A stretch of 64,000 nucleotides of DNA from a bacterium (lineage in GTDB: Bacteria > Bacteroidota > Ignavibacteria > Kapaibacteriales > Kapaibacteriaceae): NCBI GenBank assembly GCA_034440235.1, contig JAWXBR010000054.1, positions 73,131-137,130 of the forward strand. The letters are read 5' to 3'. Numbering within the stretch: position 1 is the first letter of the stretch; each line of letters begins with the position of its first letter. Below are positions 42,810 to 52,491 of the stretch, piece after piece. The notes beneath the pieces are model-generated. The model was not told where the DNA came from and did not search any database. It saw nothing but the letters and a program-made list of their open reading frames with translations. The translations under genes and the position numbers were made by a program.

Positions 42810-44375
42810 CTACTTCGCTATTGCAACACTCCGACGTTCGCGGATTACCGTGACCTTAATCTGTCCCGGGTATTCCATTTCGTCTTGAATGCGCGTTGCG
42901 ATGTCGTTGGCCAGTGTATCGGCGCGCAAGTCGTCGATACGTTCGGGTTCGATCATCACGCGGACTTCGCGACCAGCCTGGATGGCGTAGGTCTTTGTAA
43001 CGCCTGCGAATGATGTTGCGATTTCTTCGAGCTGCTGAAGGCGCTTGATGTAGTTCTCGAGCGATTCGCGGCGAGCGCCCGGACGTGATCCGCTGATGCT
43101 ATCGGCGGATTGAACGAGTACTGCGATGGGCGATTCCATTTCGATGTCGTCGTGGTGAGCACCAACGGCGTTTACAACGAGTGGATGTTCTTTGTACTTC
43201 TTTACGAGTTCCATGCCGAGTAAGGCGTGTGGACCTTCGATGTCGCGATCGATACACTTACCAATGTCGTGCAACAGACCAGCGCGCTTCGCAAGGTTTA
43301 CATCGAGACCAAGTTCGTTGGCCATGATGCCTGTTAAGAAGCTTACTTCGATGCTGTGTGCAAGCAGATTTTGTCCGTACGACGAACGATACTTCATCTT
43401 GCCGATGTACCGCACCATCTCTGGGTGAAGGTTGTGAATGCCAAGCTCCATGAGAGCGTTTTCGCCCACGCGGATGAGTTCTTCTTCGAGCTCTTTGCGC
43501 ACCTTCTCTACAACTTCTTCGATGCGTGCCGGATGGATACGTCCGTCGGTCATAAGACGTTCGAGCGCAATGCGCGCGGTCTCGCGACGGAACGGGTCGA
43601 AGCCCGAGATGACAACTGCTTCTGGTGTGTCGTCTATAATAAGGTCGATACCGGTGGCAGCTTCGAAGGCGCGAATGTTGCGTCCCTCTTTACCAATGAT
43701 ACGTCCCTTCATCTCATCATTCAGCAGATTCACAACGCTCACGGTCGATTCTACGCAGTGGTCTGAAGCGGTGCGCTGAATTGCCATAAGGACAATTCGC
43801 TGTGCTTCTTTGCGGGCGTTAATCTTTGCTTCGTCGCGGACATCTTTAACGAGTTGCGCACCTGCTGCTTTCGCTTCGTTCACCATGTTGTCCATGAGGA
43901 AGCGCTTCGCGTCGTCGCGACTCATGCCTGTGATGCGTTCTAGGCGTTCGTTCTGCTCGTCTACGAGGACGTCAATTTCTTTGACCTTGCCATCGATGGT
44001 GCTGGCCTTCTTGGCGAGTTCACCTTCGAGTGAAGCGAGTTGTTTTTCTTTCTTGGTGATGACTTCGAATTTCGATTCGACACCTTCTTCGCGTTTCTTC
44101 AGCTCCTTCTCAAGCCCCTTAAGCTTCACGTCTTTCTGTTCACGTTCCTGTTCGTGCTGACGTTTTTGCTTTTGGATTTCTTCCTTGGCTTCGAGAAGTT
44201 TTTCGCGCTTTACGGCCGAAGCTTCTTTAGCGGCGTCTTCGACAGACGCTTTAGCTCTTGCTTCTGCAGTTGCCAGTGTTGTGGCAGCGAGTTTCTTCCC
44301 TGATATGTAAGTGATCAGAAAGCCGACCACGGCAACGGCGGCACCGATTGCCACCGCAACGATCGTTGGGTCCAT
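42810..44375 (-). CDS. rny: Ribonuclease Y
   Basis: N-terminal TM anchor, long coiled-coil, KH domain (IIGKEGRNIRAFE), HD domain (LLHDIGK...GAHHDD). Confidence 0.9.
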   Translation of the reverse strand: MDPTIVAVAIGAAVAVVGFLITYISGKKLAATTLATAEARAKASVEDAAKEASAVKREKLLEAKEEIQKQKRQHEQEREQKDVKLKGLEKELKKREEGVESKFEVITKKEKQLASLEGELAKKASTIDGKVKEIDVLVDEQNERLERITGMSRDDAKRFLMDNMVNEAKAAGAQLVKDVRDEAKINARKEAQRIVLMAIQRTASDHCVESTVSVVNLLNDEMKGRIIGKEGRNIRAFEAATGIDLIIDDTPEAVVISGFDPFRRETARIALERLMTDGRIHPARIEEVVEKVRKELEEELIRVGENALMELGIHNLHPEMVRYIGKMKYRSSYGQNLLAHSIEVSFLTGIMANELGLDVNLAKRAGLLHDIGKCIDRDIEGPHALLGMELVKKYKEHPLVVNAVGAHHDDIEMESPIAVLVQSADSISGSRPGARRESLENYIKRLQQLEEIATSFAGVTKTYAIQAGREVRVMIEPERIDDLRADTLANDIATRIQDEMEYPGQIKVTVIRERRSVAIAK

Positions 44376-44391
44376 GCGTGCTCCTTAGATG

Positions 44392-44640
44392 AAAAAAGAG
44401 CCGCATCGCGCTATCGGCGGGTTTCCCCACTTAACGGTTGCAAAAGAACCTGTTGGCTGCGCACGGTGGGTACCATCCTGGCCACCGCTGACGTCCACTG
44501 AACAGCCTTGTGCTATTCCCAAAGACGAAGTCAACGGGTGAGGCCTGCCATTGATGGTCAGAGCCTGGTTCCCAAGCAAAGAAAAAATTGTACGGTTCTT
44601 TTTCAAACGTGCGTACCGATAGCGGATGCGACAAAGCATC
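44392..44640 (-). ncRNA. Candidate structured non-coding RNA (6S/SsrS-like?) between zapA and rny
   Basis: ~330 bp with no credible ORF. A 14-15 nt long-range inverted repeat (GCATCGCGCTATCGG at 44403-44417 versus CCGATAGCGGATGC at 44616-44629) forms a closing stem. An adjacent second helix pairs AAAAGAACC with GGTTCTTTT. The hairpin plus T-tract ends at ~44392 on the minus strand. zapA-ssrS synteny is known from E. coli. Confidence 0.3.
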
Positions 44641-44704: not shown

Positions 44705-45004
44705 CTACGGAAGGGGCTGTCGCCATGCTCGTTCAAGGTACTGTGTCATTTTGTCCAGTTCCTCGTTTACGAATCGAACGTCTTGCGAGTTCTGATCTAA
44801 GGCATCGTGATAGCGTTCGGCGATATTCAAAGCTGCTAGAAGCGAAAGCGTCGGAGTCGACTGCTCCCTAAGCGACTGTTGCAATGCTTGAATTTGAAGA
44901 TTTACTTCCCGTACTGACTTCTTAATCCTCTCTTCGTTATCTCCACGAAGGGTGAGGTCTTTTCCACCAATATTTACTCTGATTGCTTTCGACATAATCG
45001 TCAT
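44705..45004 (-). CDS. zapA: Cell division protein ZapA
   Basis: MTIMSKAIRVNIGGKDLTLRGDNEE...ALNIAER matches the ZapA family pattern. Start set at the ATG at 45004. Confidence 0.7.
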   Translation of the reverse strand: MTIMSKAIRVNIGGKDLTLRGDNEERIKKSVREVNLQIQALQQSLREQSTPTLSLLAALNIAERYHDALDQNSQDVRFVNEELDKMTQYLERAWRQPLP

Positions 45005-45029: not shown

Positions 45030-45818
45030 TTAGGAAATTCCGAACAATGAACTGATGCGTCCCGAAAGCACATCCAGTCGCGAAGCCAAAGCAACCATCT
45101 CTGCAGGTGCCATTCCTGGCTGAACCACAGAGCTAAAGATGTCGAGCTGACGCTGGTTGCGGTTTTCCTCGAGCGTTATCTGCAAGTCTTGCAGAAGCTT
45201 GGTACGAGCCTCGAGCTCGGTGCGCACAAAGGCAAGCTGTTGCGAGATCACCTTATGGTCGGTAAGCTGACCCTGCGCTTCGTTCAACTCATTCTGCAAT
45301 CTGTTCAATTCGTCCTCGAGTCTATCGATGTTCTTACGAAGCGAGCGTACCTCAACCTCATGCTCAAGCTCTCTGGCCAGCATCAACTCCTGCGCACGCT
45401 CGGTTGCGTCATGTGCACGTGCGTTTAACTCGTCATTGTCTGGCTGGTAGGGGGCTGCCTCGACGTTGCTCACAACCTGCCGCTCGTGTGCGATTGCAGG
45501 TGATGCGATCTGCTCTTGATGATGAACGACCGAGCCCTGCGCGGTACTCATGCGTGTTTCTAAGTCAGCAATGCGTTCGAGAAAATCCTGCACGCGCGAC
45601 TGCAGCTCTGTTTCGCTCTTGCGAAGCGACTGCACTTGCGCCTGAAGGATTGCATTTTCCTGACGAAGTGTTACGATAACGTCTGCGCTCTTGCGCACTG
45701 TATCCCAGAAACGAAGAACGGTGGCCTCGAGCTCTGCTTGCGCCTTCTGTGCCTGTGCATCGGGTGCATCTTCAAAGAGTTGCTGAGGTTGTTCTTGTGG
45801 TAGGTTTCTTGGACCCAT
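45030..45818 (-). CDS. Coiled-coil hypothetical protein (between pheT and zapA)
   Basis: Long heptad-repeat region rich in Q/E/L/R. No enzymatic motifs. Confidence 0.5.
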   Translation of the reverse strand: MGPRNLPQEQPQQLFEDAPDAQAQKAQAELEATVLRFWDTVRKSADVIVTLRQENAILQAQVQSLRKSETELQSRVQDFLERIADLETRMSTAQGSVVHHQEQIASPAIAHERQVVSNVEAAPYQPDNDELNARAHDATERAQELMLARELEHEVEVRSLRKNIDRLEDELNRLQNELNEAQGQLTDHKVISQQLAFVRTELEARTKLLQDLQITLEENRNQRQLDIFSSVVQPGMAPAEMVALASRLDVLSGRISSLFGIS

Positions 45819-45827
45819 GATTGCTCC

Positions 45828-48578
45828 TTAATTCCCGCGCACTTGCGCGTGCAGCACAGACGCTGCTGCGTTAACGATACTGTTCACTGCCGAATCGACT
45901 TCGGCATCGACCAACGTTCGCTCATCACTTCTGAAGGTCAGCGAAAGACCAACACTCTTCTTGCCACTTCCGAGCGCATCATCTCTATACACATCGAACA
46001 CGTCAACGTCCTTCAGCAACGCAGTACCCGATGTTCGCGCTACGTCGATAATTGCTCCTGCGGACACCCCATCTCCTACTACAAACGCAATGTCGCGGCG
46101 TACCGCCGGAAACATCCCCACGTTCCTGAACTCCCGCGTTTGTGCGGCCAACGATCTGACGTCAATCTCTACTGCGACAACCGTTCGTTCAATCTCGTAT
46201 TTCTTGGCATACGATGGATTCAGTTGCCCGACACGTCCAACTTTCTTTCCGTTATGCACTACCGAAAGCGAATTTGCACTTGCAAACATCGCCGAATCGG
46301 CGGCCTCTTCCGACAGTATTTCTGCTACTAATGTTATGTCAATCCCGGCCAATCGAAGCGCCGCTTTCACATCACCTTCGATGTCATACAGGTCGATTTC
46401 TTTCTGCTTCTCACTCCAATGCGCATCTGTAAGTCCGCATGCCACCATACACATCGTCTGCGTTTCACGAAGTCCGAATTCTGTCGCTTTATCCTCACTC
46501 GCACGGTTCTTACTCGTCGCATCAGTAACGATACCGCCGGCTTCGCTATTAAACACCTTGCCAATCTCCAACAATCGCACACCTTGCATACCATGGCGCA
46601 TGTTGCTCGAAGCAACACGCAGCAACCCGGGCAACAACGACGTCCGTAGCGCCGAAAACTCCACGCCCATCGCATTCTTCAGCCTCACCGTCGTCCGTTC
46701 ATCCGGAGCACCCAGCACATGCGTCACACAATCTGCATAGCCCCTTGCCGCAAGCCCCTTACGCACAGCATCTGCAACGTTCATGTGCTCGCGCGACACG
46801 AGATACGTAGCACTAGTGGTGTTCGTATCAGTGGTGTTCGTATCAGTGGTGTTCGTATCAGTGGCGTTCGGCTCAGTCGTGTTCGCTCGCGTGGGAGTGC
46901 CGTATGCAACGCGCGCGTGCGTCGACGACGGAATGTTGTTCACTCCGTATAGGCGCATTACTTCTTCGGCCACGTCTATCTCGTCGATAATGTCTGCGCG
47001 ATACGACGGCACTTGCCATAACCGACCCACCTTTGTAGCATCGAGTCCGACAAGTCCGACTGCTATACACATCTTATGAATCGTCTCGTCCGAAATGTCT
47101 ACGCCATTTACGCTACGCATCTTCTCGTAGCGCACATCGACCGTTGACGGTTGAGCCGGAGATGGGTACACATCAACTTGCGTGTGGGCTACAGGCTTAG
47201 TTGCTTCGCCTGAGTCTTGCGAAACACCTCCACCGAACTCGCAGATGAGTTGCGCTGCACGCGCGCATGCTTCGGCAAGTGCGCCTATATCGACGCCACG
47301 TTCGAAGCGATACGATGCATCGGAATTCAGCGAAAGTTTTTTTGCCGTGCGACGTATCGATGACGGTGCGAAGAACGCACTCTCTAGAACAATGTCGGTT
47401 GTGTCGTCGGCAATCTCGGAGTTCTCGCCGCCCATGACGCCTGCAATGCCAACCGGACCCGATGCTTTGCAGATAAGCAACATGTCATCGTCCAATTCGC
47501 GCTGCTTGCTATCGAGTGTCGTGAACTTCCAAGGCTTTGGCTTGCCAGCGTATGCTTCGGCAGCAGTCTGCACGATAATCGACGGCAGAAGATTTTCTGA
47601 AATCTTATTTGTGCCGACCATTGCTGACGTTGTGCTGTCACTGTTTGACACCAATGCACGCAAATCGAATGCATGCAGGGGCTGTCCGTATTCCATCATA
47701 ACGTAGTTGGTGGCATCGACCACGATGTTGCGCGGACGTAATCCGATTGCAGTCAAGCGGTCCTGCATCCACTGCGGCGACGGTTGCACACGCACGCCTG
47801 TAATGCGCTGCGCGATGTATCGCGGACAAAGCGTTGTGTTCTTGAGATCTACGTTAACGTCAGTAGAACCAGATGTTTCTTGATCATGTTGATTCGAACT
47901 ACCGGCGCGAGGCTTCGACATTGTAGAATCAATGCGTCCACGTTTCAGATCTAGCGCCTTGCCTTCGTGTACATGCATGTACGCCTGCAGGTCGCGCGCT
48001 ATGCCGATGTGCGAAAGTGCGTCTGCACGATTTGGCGTAATTGCTACATCGTAAACTATGTCAGTAAATCCCAGCACGTCTGCCAGCGGAGTGCCGACTG
48101 CGAGTGGAGTACCGACTGCGTACGGACCGTTGTGGTTTGTCGACTCATCGTCGACCATATCCCAAATGCCATCGACATCGGCTACGAGTCCGAGTTCGGC
48201 TTTCGAGCAAATCATTCCTTGCGACTCAACGCCACGAAGCACGCGGCGAGCAATCGTGTAGCCGCCCCCTGTCGGAACGACAGCCCCTTCTAGAGCAACC
48301 GGTACTGTTTGTCCGGCCGCCACATTCGCCGCCCCGCAAACAATCGTACGCACGACGCCATCGCCAACATCCACGGTCGTTACGCTCAGCTTATCGGCCT
48401 TTGGGTGTTTCTCGCACGTCAGGATACGTCCGACCACAAAGCCCTTCAGCGTCGCTCCGCGGTCATCGATATGCTCCACTTCGAGTCCGAGATCGGTAAG
48501 GGTCTGCGCGATGCGCGCAGGGGTCCATTCGGCCTTAAGATCGACGTACTCCGAGAGCCAGTTATGCGAGATGTTCAT
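45828..48578 (-). CDS. pheT: Phenylalanine--tRNA ligase beta subunit
   Basis: N-terminus MNISHNWLSEYVDL, tRNA-binding OB domain, and the B3/B4, B5 and FDX-ACB domains in order. Contains a low-complexity insert (TDTNT)n. Start moved to the ATG at 48578. Confidence 0.9.
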   Translation of the reverse strand: MNISHNWLSEYVDLKAEWTPARIAQTLTDLGLEVEHIDDRGATLKGFVVGRILTCEKHPKADKLSVTTVDVGDGVVRTIVCGAANVAAGQTVPVALEGAVVPTGGGYTIARRVLRGVESQGMICSKAELGLVADVDGIWDMVDDESTNHNGPYAVGTPLAVGTPLADVLGFTDIVYDVAITPNRADALSHIGIARDLQAYMHVHEGKALDLKRGRIDSTMSKPRAGSSNQHDQETSGSTDVNVDLKNTTLCPRYIAQRITGVRVQPSPQWMQDRLTAIGLRPRNIVVDATNYVMMEYGQPLHAFDLRALVSNSDSTTSAMVGTNKISENLLPSIIVQTAAEAYAGKPKPWKFTTLDSKQRELDDDMLLICKASGPVGIAGVMGGENSEIADDTTDIVLESAFFAPSSIRRTAKKLSLNSDASYRFERGVDIGALAEACARAAQLICEFGGGVSQDSGEATKPVAHTQVDVYPSPAQPSTVDVRYEKMRSVNGVDISDETIHKMCIAVGLVGLDATKVGRLWQVPSYRADIIDEIDVAEEVMRLYGVNNIPSSTHARVAYGTPTRANTTEPNATDTNTTDTNTTDTNTTSATYLVSREHMNVADAVRKGLAARGYADCVTHVLGAPDERTTVRLKNAMGVEFSALRTSLLPGLLRVASSNMRHGMQGVRLLEIGKVFNSEAGGIVTDATSKNRASEDKATEFGLRETQTMCMVACGLTDAHWSEKQKEIDLYDIEGDVKAALRLAGIDITLVAEILSEEAADSAMFASANSLSVVHNGKKVGRVGQLNPSYAKKYEIERTVVAVEIDVRSLAAQTREFRNVGMFPAVRRDIAFVVGDGVSAGAIIDVARTSGTALLKDVDVFDVYRDDALGSGKKSVGLSLTFRSDERTLVDAEVDSAVNSIVNAAASVLHAQVRGN
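46815..46889. repeat. In-frame 15-bp tandem repeat (3 perfect + 2 degenerate copies) inside pheT
   Basis: AGTGGTGTTCGTATC x3, then AGTGGCGTTCGGCTC and AGTCGTGTTCGCTCG. Encodes TTDTN-type pentapeptide repeats on the minus strand. Confidence 0.8.
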
Positions 48579-48668
48579 TGGATGTGAAGTATGCGAAGAA
48601 TACACGCAAAGATAGGTCTGTCAAGGGCCTAGGGGGTGGCGGTATTTATACACAGCGACGTACTGATT

Positions 48669-52418: not shown

Positions 52419-52491
<73 letters not shown>

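Follow-up and report, generated by a model that had tools for sequence, protein, structure and literature searches.

A probable divergent 6S RNA encoded in the zapA–rny gap of a Kapaibacterial genome

The DNA considered here (64,000 nucleotides (nt) of contig JAWXBR010000054.1, assembly GCA_034440235.1; hereafter the window) carries zapA and, downstream on the same minus strand, rny, the gene for RNase Y. The gap between the two genes is proposed to encode a divergent, expanded 6S RNA (ssrS) of about 230 nt. 6S RNA is an RNA-polymerase-sequestering regulator found in most bacteria. Both flanking genes had been named in a preliminary description of the locus, and both assignments are borne out by Pfam matches (PF05164, ZapA, 53.4 bits; PF12072, 150 bits, with PF00013 and PF01966, i.e., the KH and HD domains, in RNase Y). 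The best genome match of the RNase Y protein is a Candidatus Kapaibacteriota metagenome-assembled genome (MAG) at 96% identity, and the others are Kapaibacterium, Ignavibacteria and Melioribacteraceae MAGs, which places the window in Kapaibacteria. The 5′ end of the predicted RNA lies 74 nt past the zapA stop, and a run of six U residues (U6, 44392–44397) ends 5 nt ahead of the rny ribosome-binding site. A simple promoter and terminator scan, which excludes Bacteroidota-type promoters and long-range stems, returned a single weak promoter-like site, on the plus strand, and did not find a hairpin terminator, the latter because the closing stem of the RNA is long-range.

Read on the minus strand, the gap forms a rod that consists, from the outside inwards, of a closing stem (P1, 16 base pairs (bp)), an internal loop, a second helix (P2, 9–10 bp), an open bubble with strands of 20 and 17 nt, a terminal stem (P3) and a variable apex. 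The 14-bp closing helix with a 1-nt bulge that had been described earlier is present, with GCAUCCGCUAUCGG (44616–44629) pairing with CCGAUAGCGCGAUGC (44403–44417) around one bulged C, and it was found to be two pairs longer than claimed, reaching 44631/44401. The second helix of that description corresponds to P2, in which AAAAGAACC (44594–44602) and GGUUCUUUU (44442–44450) form 9 bp. The hairpin plus U-tract placed just upstream of the rny ribosome-binding site was also recovered, as a hairpin at 44418–44430 followed by the 3′ arm of P1 and then U6. The minimum free energy (MFE) of 44392–44640 is −103.2 kcal/mol, compared with −77.5 ± 4.8 kcal/mol in 200 dinucleotide shuffles (z = −5.35), none of which was as good. 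A local hairpin, CAGUGG/CCACUG, was dropped as a candidate; its variable position shows no covariation, and its CCC pairs with GGG of P3.

Comparative evidence was drawn from 80 related loci fetched through the RNase Y protein, so that the scans covered 64 kb of this genome and about 2.5 kb around rny in each relative. This protein search returned close relatives only and reached no Bacteroidia or Chlorobia contexts. The element was found by blastn and an nhmmer profile directly upstream of rny wherever the contig extends that far, and its two near-invariant blocks are 85–95% identical between genomes whose RNase Y proteins share only about 80% identity. A covariance model of the RNA core (R1, 187 positions; E values rough) gave one full-length match per locus in 72 loci of Kapaibacteria, Ignavibacteria and Melioribacteraceae, some of which had not been used in building it. 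In the window, R1 gave a single match, to the core at 44422–44603 on the minus strand (129.1 bits, E 1e-22). At least 62 of the 72 loci have a zapA homologue just upstream of the RNA. The RNA is about 230–280 nt long in Kapaibacteria, 231 nt in the window, and 184–240 nt in Ignavibacteria and Melioribacteraceae. The Kapaibacterial insertions are a small hairpin in the P1/P2 loop, which has varying stem sequences in the Kapaibacteria rows of the alignment and is absent from the Ignavibacteria rows, and an enlarged, sometimes branched, apex. Orthologues differ in the length of the apical region (about 20 to 90 nt) and in the sequences of its local hairpins.

The helices of this RNA covary. RNAalifold applied to 39 sequences returned P1 and a long irregular P3, with compensatory changes at 20 pairs. 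When P2 was added to this consensus, 95.1% of 1902 cells in the 39 orthologues were paired, against 33–45% when the partners were slid by 1–3 columns. In the same 39-orthologue alignment (A1), 22 pairs were changed on both sides, and none of 500 shuffles reached the observed values. A phylum-wide alignment of 73 model-aligned sequences (A4), which leans towards the family model by construction because it is fitted to it, showed 93.9% pairing against 39–51% for slid partners, with 22 of 29 pairs doubly changed. Covariation in orthologous zapA–rny regions, which the preliminary description had put forward as a check, is thus strong, with 22 doubly changed pairs and 94–95% pairing against 33–51%. 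Among the individual helices, P1 has 13 counted pairs in A1, 7 of them with both-side changes, and is 95.2% paired. P3 (A1 columns 64–96/186–214) has 22 pairs, 12 of them doubly changed, and was also confirmed in A4. P2, the second helix claimed earlier, is the most convincing helix of the RNA: across the phylum it is 99.4% paired, 6 of its 7 pairs have both-side changes, and its swaps can be read in the raw sequences (GAAGAAC/GUUCUUC, GAGAAC/GUUCUC, GAUCC/GGAUC, GAAAAC/GUUUUU and GAAUC/GAUUC). G-U pairs are frequent, and column pair 75/205 of A1 is U-G in 39 of 39 sequences, which fixes the transcribed strand as minus. The central bubble that had been proposed as a feature to look for is supported as unpaired between P2 and P3 in the covariation consensus. 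Taken as a whole, P1, P2, the 20/17-nt bubble and P3 form the shape expected of 6S RNA, a double-stranded rod of about 180–200 nt or more with a large central bubble.

How close is this element to the 6S family in Rfam? An Rfam/Infernal scan, also named earlier as a check, gave a divided answer: the window has no match to the 6S model (RF00013), and zapA–rny orthologues match it over its full length at 21.7–39.5 bits, below threshold. In the window, neither the gathering threshold nor E ≤ 10 brought up a 6S, 6S-Flavo or other non-coding RNA family at the site, and 20 distant loci scanned at the gathering threshold yielded only tRNAs; the 6S matches surfaced only under E-value thresholds. Five orthologues match RF00013 from model position 1 to 187 (L066, 39.5 bits; L060, 39.0; L057, 37.7; L051, 32.1; L049, 21.7). 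Their E values span 1.5e-4 to 2.8, and those of the four matches of 32–39.5 bits span 1.5e-4 to 9e-3; L066 (E 1.5e-4) and L060 (E 2e-4) were obtained in a 58.8-kb search with all 4227 families, and L066 alone, on 321 nt, gave E 8.3e-7. All of these matches lie on the correct strand and coincide with the element, and no non-tRNA family matched better. In the L066 alignment, the Rfam helix CuGAgCC/GGuUCaAg lands on P2, GGG...CCCAC on the base of P3, and both the 5′ and 3′ bubble strands of Rfam on the inferred loop, so that helices and bubble agree with the structure derived independently from covariation. The blocks GUGGAAG..AAAA and CCCAC of the P3 3′ strand align to GGAAgCcuaAAa and CCCACCUg of the Rfam 6S consensus, and the most conserved blocks of the family (GGGA, ..GCC, GGAAG..AAAA, CCCAC-UG and GGUU) are 6S consensus positions. 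The RNA thus shares with Rfam 6S the GGG...CCCAC that flanks the bubble, GGAAG..AAAA, and GGUUC in the 3′ arm of P2. Few steps lead from the window to the 6S model, since L051 and L049 align end to end with the window in one alignment. Moreover, R1 scores L066 and L060 at 116–117 bits, and an nhmmer profile built from the window group matches these two loci at the same place. The silence of the window itself is attributed to its lineage-specific insertions, as RF00013 scores drop while these grow.

Characterized 6S RNAs show both likenesses to this element and differences from it. The zapA–ssrS synteny invoked in the preliminary description is real: in Escherichia coli K-12, the ssrS start lies 42 nt past zapA, with both genes on one strand, and the RNA of the window likewise lies directly downstream of zapA on the same strand, a likeness that is supportive rather than defining. 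The downstream gene, in contrast, is rny here and the 5-formyl-tetrahydrofolate cyclo-ligase gene in E. coli. The rod with a closing stem, a downstream helix, a large central bubble and a terminal stem is common to this RNA, E. coli 6S and Bacillus subtilis 6S-1, whereas its length differs from that of E. coli 6S (231 nt versus 183 nt), and the hairpin in the P1/P2 loop and the larger, sometimes branched, apex are additions of the window lineage relative to known 6S RNAs. The 6S RNA of Bacteroides thetaiotaomicron, BTnc017, was validated experimentally, with product RNAs (pRNAs) detected (Ryan et al., 2020; PMC7366714). This free-standing 181-nt RNA, whose sequence is given in supplementary file 4 of that study, has a start site and a terminator of its own and is located at NC_004663.1:512924–513104, flanked by BT_0425 and the convergent BT_0428; the terminator called in the tables of the study is P1 plus the U-tract (PMC7366714). 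BTnc017 belongs to the same phylum-level lineage and shares with the window RNA the layout of P1, P2 and bubble, the collinear blocks CAAUGGCGGGCCACAUCC versus CAAUGGCAGGCCUCACCC and GGUGGAUUACAAAGAGG versus CAGUGGAAGUAAAAAG, the block CAAUGGCAGGCC of the P3 5′ strand, and the 3′ end, which in both RNAs is GAUGCGGCU with a U-tract behind it; P1 plus the U-tract of the window RNA resembles the BTnc017 terminator. The two differ in length (181 nt versus 231 nt) and in that BTnc017 has its own start site. The 6S-Flavo RNA (RF01685; Weinberg et al., 2010) is likewise a divergent Bacteroidota 6S candidate that was recognized by structure and missed by standard searches. No RF01685 match was found in the window or in the 40 loci scanned, and the 6S-Flavo sequences shown in the supplement of that study are unrelated at the sequence level.

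The identification of the element as a divergent 6S RNA of Kapaibacterium (Bacteroidota/Ignavibacteriota lineage) is given a probability of roughly 0.85 on these sequence comparisons. The 6S-like reading of the preliminary description is thereby supported by the full-length RF00013 matches in orthologues, covariation, the family model and zapA adjacency. Several results count against it. A search of 501 nt of the window at E ≤ 10 still gave no Rfam 6S match, and all orthologues stay below the RF00013 gathering score of 46.4 bits, so that Rfam-based annotation would not call them; this score is an annotation threshold and not a biological criterion. R1 does not recover E. coli ssrS, giving only noise of 10 bits or less with filters off. 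The sequence-only similarity to BTnc017 is weak (nhmmer, 6.2 bits; E 2.8e-4 in a 362-nt search space) and was counted as corroboration only. The unconstrained MFE of the window RNA is −99.5 kcal/mol compared with −80.8 kcal/mol for the consensus fold, and the interiors of the two folds differ; the argument rests on comparative data rather than on the single-sequence fold. The loops of P3 are conserved more strongly than is usual for 6S RNA. Finally, a second 6S gene may possibly lie elsewhere in the genome, outside the scanned 64 kb.

The position of the element could also suggest a cis-acting rny leader or attenuator, in which the structure and U-tract would terminate or permit rny transcription or would be a target of autoregulatory RNase Y cleavage. 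Each of the 72 loci that carry the element has rny directly downstream of it, the U-tract of the window stops just short of the ribosome-binding site, and autoregulatory RNase leaders are known, such as the rne-II motif of the Weinberg et al. (2010) set. Like the rne 5′ UTR (untranslated region) and rne-II motifs, the element is a conserved structure directly upstream of a major endoribonuclease gene. Those motifs, however, are cis-regulatory mRNA leaders without 6S resemblance, whereas the orthologues here give full-length matches to the 6S model. Moreover, the spacer that separates the element from the rny start codon does not have the fixed length of an rne-type leader but varies from about 25 nt to about 285 nt (110–130 nt in L061–L065, about 285 nt in L045). 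The related BTnc017 stands alone as a transcript, having a start site and a terminator of its own. In the consensus structure of the element, no pairing with the ribosome-binding site was found, and no ligand-pocket-like or anti-terminator alternative involving that site was observed. A leader is thus very unlikely as the main identity, and the suggestion of an rny leader/attenuator or a zapA 3′ UTR in the preliminary description did not hold as the main identity. An additional role is possible: imperfect termination at P1 plus the U-tract would let 6S transcription feed rny expression.

There is also a slim chance that the element is another structured RNA that merely resembles 6S, for example an Ms1-like binder of core RNA polymerase or an RNA derived from the zapA 3′ UTR with another protein partner. 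Every Rfam score lies below the curated cut-off, the near-invariant P3 loops AUUACAGGCCUCA and CAGUGGAAGUAAAAAG suggest sequence-specific recognition, and Ms1 offers a precedent, as 6S-like folds can bind other forms of RNA polymerase (PMC9130861). Nevertheless, the conserved blocks are the same as those of the Rfam 6S consensus and of the validated BTnc017, and the geometry of bubble and P2, together with a refolding hairpin, fits the 6S cycle. As for a small protein gene, the preliminary description had found no convincing open reading frame (ORF) in the gap. This claim needs qualification, as an 84-amino-acid (aa) ORF does overlap the RNA region on the minus strand; the ORF is not conserved, however. 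In relatives, stop-free stretches occur in varying frames and on either strand, the window and its closest relative differ by a 1-nt indel, and variation is compensatory in helices rather than at third codon positions. The small-protein reading, whose likelihood is practically negligible, was rejected on these grounds.

If the element is a 6S RNA, then by analogy with characterized 6S RNAs its observed fold, conservation and 6S resemblance would imply holoenzyme sequestration and pRNA synthesis. The RNA would be transcribed from the minus strand, either with zapA or from just downstream of zapA, and transcription would probably end at the U-tract behind the closing stem. The bubble and flanking helices would mimic an open promoter and fill the active site of the RNA polymerase holoenzyme that carries the housekeeping factor sigma-A, and its sequestration would dampen transcription under nutrient scarcity. 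On outgrowth, the polymerase would copy the 5′ bubble strand and the 5′ arm of P2 (about 44575–44603) into a short pRNA. Pairing of the pRNA would unzip P2, the freed 3′ strand would refold, and the complex would fall apart, releasing the polymerase.

The refolding step appears to differ within the family. In E. coli-type 6S RNA, the release hairpin is formed by the 3′ bubble strand and the 3′ strand of P2 upon disruption of P2 (PMC8876501). In Ignavibacteria and Melioribacteraceae, the 3′ bubble strand, the 3′ arm of P2 and the next few nt were found to form a covarying hairpin of 8–14 bp that fits this description (PMC8876501). Its stems are wholly different between genomes (AUAAAUAGG/CCUAUUUAU, AAUUAACAGG/CCUUGUUAAUU, UAGAUAGG/CCUAUCUA, GAAAGAG/CUCUUUC and AAUGGAAG/CUUCCAUU), and it overlaps the P2 3′ arm and is mutually exclusive with P2. 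In the Ignavibacteria orthologues, refolding would therefore be of the E. coli type. In the predicted free-RNA MFE folds of full-length L066, L060 and L053, all from Ignavibacteria/Melioribacteraceae, the 3′ bubble hairpin already replaces P2 despite the phylum-wide covariation of P2; P2 may need the polymerase in order to form, or the hairpin may exist beforehand, as it does in B. subtilis. In the window and other Kapaibacteria, the equivalent hairpin is only 4–7 bp with z about 0, so that, unlike in E. coli 6S, the release hairpin is weak. Kapaibacteria have instead a near-invariant, lineage-specific complementarity between CGCAC (44609–44613) and GUGCG (44460–44464), whose pairing would cross P2. 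This pairing is 94.4% complete in A1, its changes are one-sided and G-U-compatible without compensatory double changes, and RNAfold picks it over P2 in three Kapaibacteria relatives. Judged from sequence, it might substitute for the release hairpin. A combined proposal is doubtful as a whole. In it, a lineage-specific switch, this 5–7 bp CGCAC/GUGCG complementarity, would stand in for the E. coli-type hairpin in Kapaibacterial 6S RNA, forming either a pseudoknot that spans P2 or an alternative, closed conformer. Separately, the phylum-wide zapA–6S–rny order would reflect excision of 6S RNA from a zapA–rny transcript by the RNase Y encoded downstream; if true, such excision would link the sequestration of polymerase with both RNA decay and cell division.

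Table 1. Coordinates of the predicted RNA, its parts and neighbouring features in the window
Feature	Position	Strand	Basis or remark
Predicted 6S RNA body, P1 5′ arm to P1 3′ arm	44401..44631	-	231 nt; fold and conservation as a unit in 39 orthologues
P1 closing stem 5′ arm UCGCAUCCGCUAUCGG	44616..44631	-	Pairs with 44401–44417, one bulged C
P1/P2 internal loop, 5′ side, with CGCAC box 44609–44613	44604..44615	-	CGCAC complementary to GUGCG in 3′ bubble strand
P2 (downstream helix) 5′ arm AAAAAGAACC	44594..44603	-	9 bp with 44442–44450; predicted part of pRNA template
Central bubble 5′ strand GUACAAUUUUUUCUUUGCUU, 20 nt	44574..44593	-	Unpaired in covariation-supported consensus; predicted, by analogy, as pRNA template strand and start region
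P3 terminal stem 5′ strand GGGAACCAGGCUCUGACCAUCAAUGGCAGGCC, irregular, near-invariant loops	44542..44573	-	Covariation
Variable apical region	44497..44541	-	One to three hairpins by lineage
P3 terminal stem 3′ strand GGACGUCAGCGGUGGCCAGGAUGGUACCC	44468..44496	-	Pairs with 44542–44573
Central bubble 3′ strand ACCGUGCGCAGCCAACA, 17 nt, with GUGCG 44460–44464	44451..44467	-	Unpaired in consensus
P2 3′ arm GGUUCUUUU	44442..44450	-	Aligns to GGuUC of Rfam 6S
Small hairpin GUGGG-GAAA-CCCG, 3′ side of P1/P2 loop	44418..44430	-	Precedes P1 3′ arm
P1 closing stem 3′ arm CCGAUAGCGCGAUGCGG	44401..44417	-	GAUGCGGC end same as in B. thetaiotaomicron 6S
CUC + U6 tract	44390..44400	-	Probable RNA 3′ end or terminator tail; read from sequence; U-rich tail after P1 conserved
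84-aa ORF	44385..44639	-	Overlaps RNA region
rny ribosome-binding site AAGGAG	44381..44386	-	
rny start ATG	44375	-	
rny (RNase Y)	42810..44375	-	Downstream neighbour
zapA	44705..45004	-	Upstream neighbour
262-aa coiled-coil ORF	45030..45818	-	Between pheT and zapA
pheT	45828..48605	-	
tRNA gene	52419..52491	+	63.7 bits

Some further observations concern the zapA–rny gap in relatives. In one Ignavibacteria clade (L061, L063, L064 and L065), the 110–130-nt spacer between the RNA and rny is conserved (…GUUUCAACYUAAAAUCAUAUGUUAGAAUUAYGGAGAAUUAAAAUAUG), and in L045 the spacer lies at 2217–2500; these long spacers may be separate rny leaders. In Zhuqueibacterota/KSB1-like MAGs, the zapA–rny gap was observed to hold a different element of about 120 nt, with a closing stem of about 21 bp followed by a U-tract, at the approximate positions 2331–2450 in L075, 2311–2425 in L076 and 2340–2445 in L079 (columns 43–160 of alignment A5). 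With filters off, R1 scored nothing beyond noise (10 bits or less) in these gaps, and Rfam did not detect the element either. It could be another divergent 6S RNA or an unrelated small RNA.

Elsewhere in the window, the coiled-coil ORF between pheT and zapA has only sub-threshold coiled-coil Pfam matches and may encode a ZapB-like division protein in a pheT-x-zapA-6S-rny cluster. Within pheT, a stretch at about 46790–46880 encodes a Thr/Asn/Asp-rich tandem repeat (…NATDTNTTDTNTTDTNTTSATY…), apparently a low-complexity insertion in the phenylalanyl-tRNA synthetase beta subunit. The tRNA gene listed in Table 1 is the sole Rfam family at gathering score in the 64-kb window.

What does a 6S RNA at this locus mean for these bacteria? 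As 6S RNA is expected in nearly all bacteria, the finding is otherwise ordinary, useful rather than surprising to the specialist. Nothing relevant to a zapA–6S–rny link was found in the literature, and surveys of 6S distribution may already list Ignavibacteria candidates. With this finding, a lineage that is little studied and for the most part uncultured (Kapaibacteria/Ignavibacteria) would gain a housekeeping regulator that had gone unannotated. Owing to lineage-specific insertions, the Rfam 6S model either misses these 6S genes altogether or scores them below its cut-off. The 73-sequence alignment and the model could seed better annotation, and the zapA–6S adjacency, which is common to E. 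coli and this phylum throughout, is a useful positional marker for divergent 6S genes.

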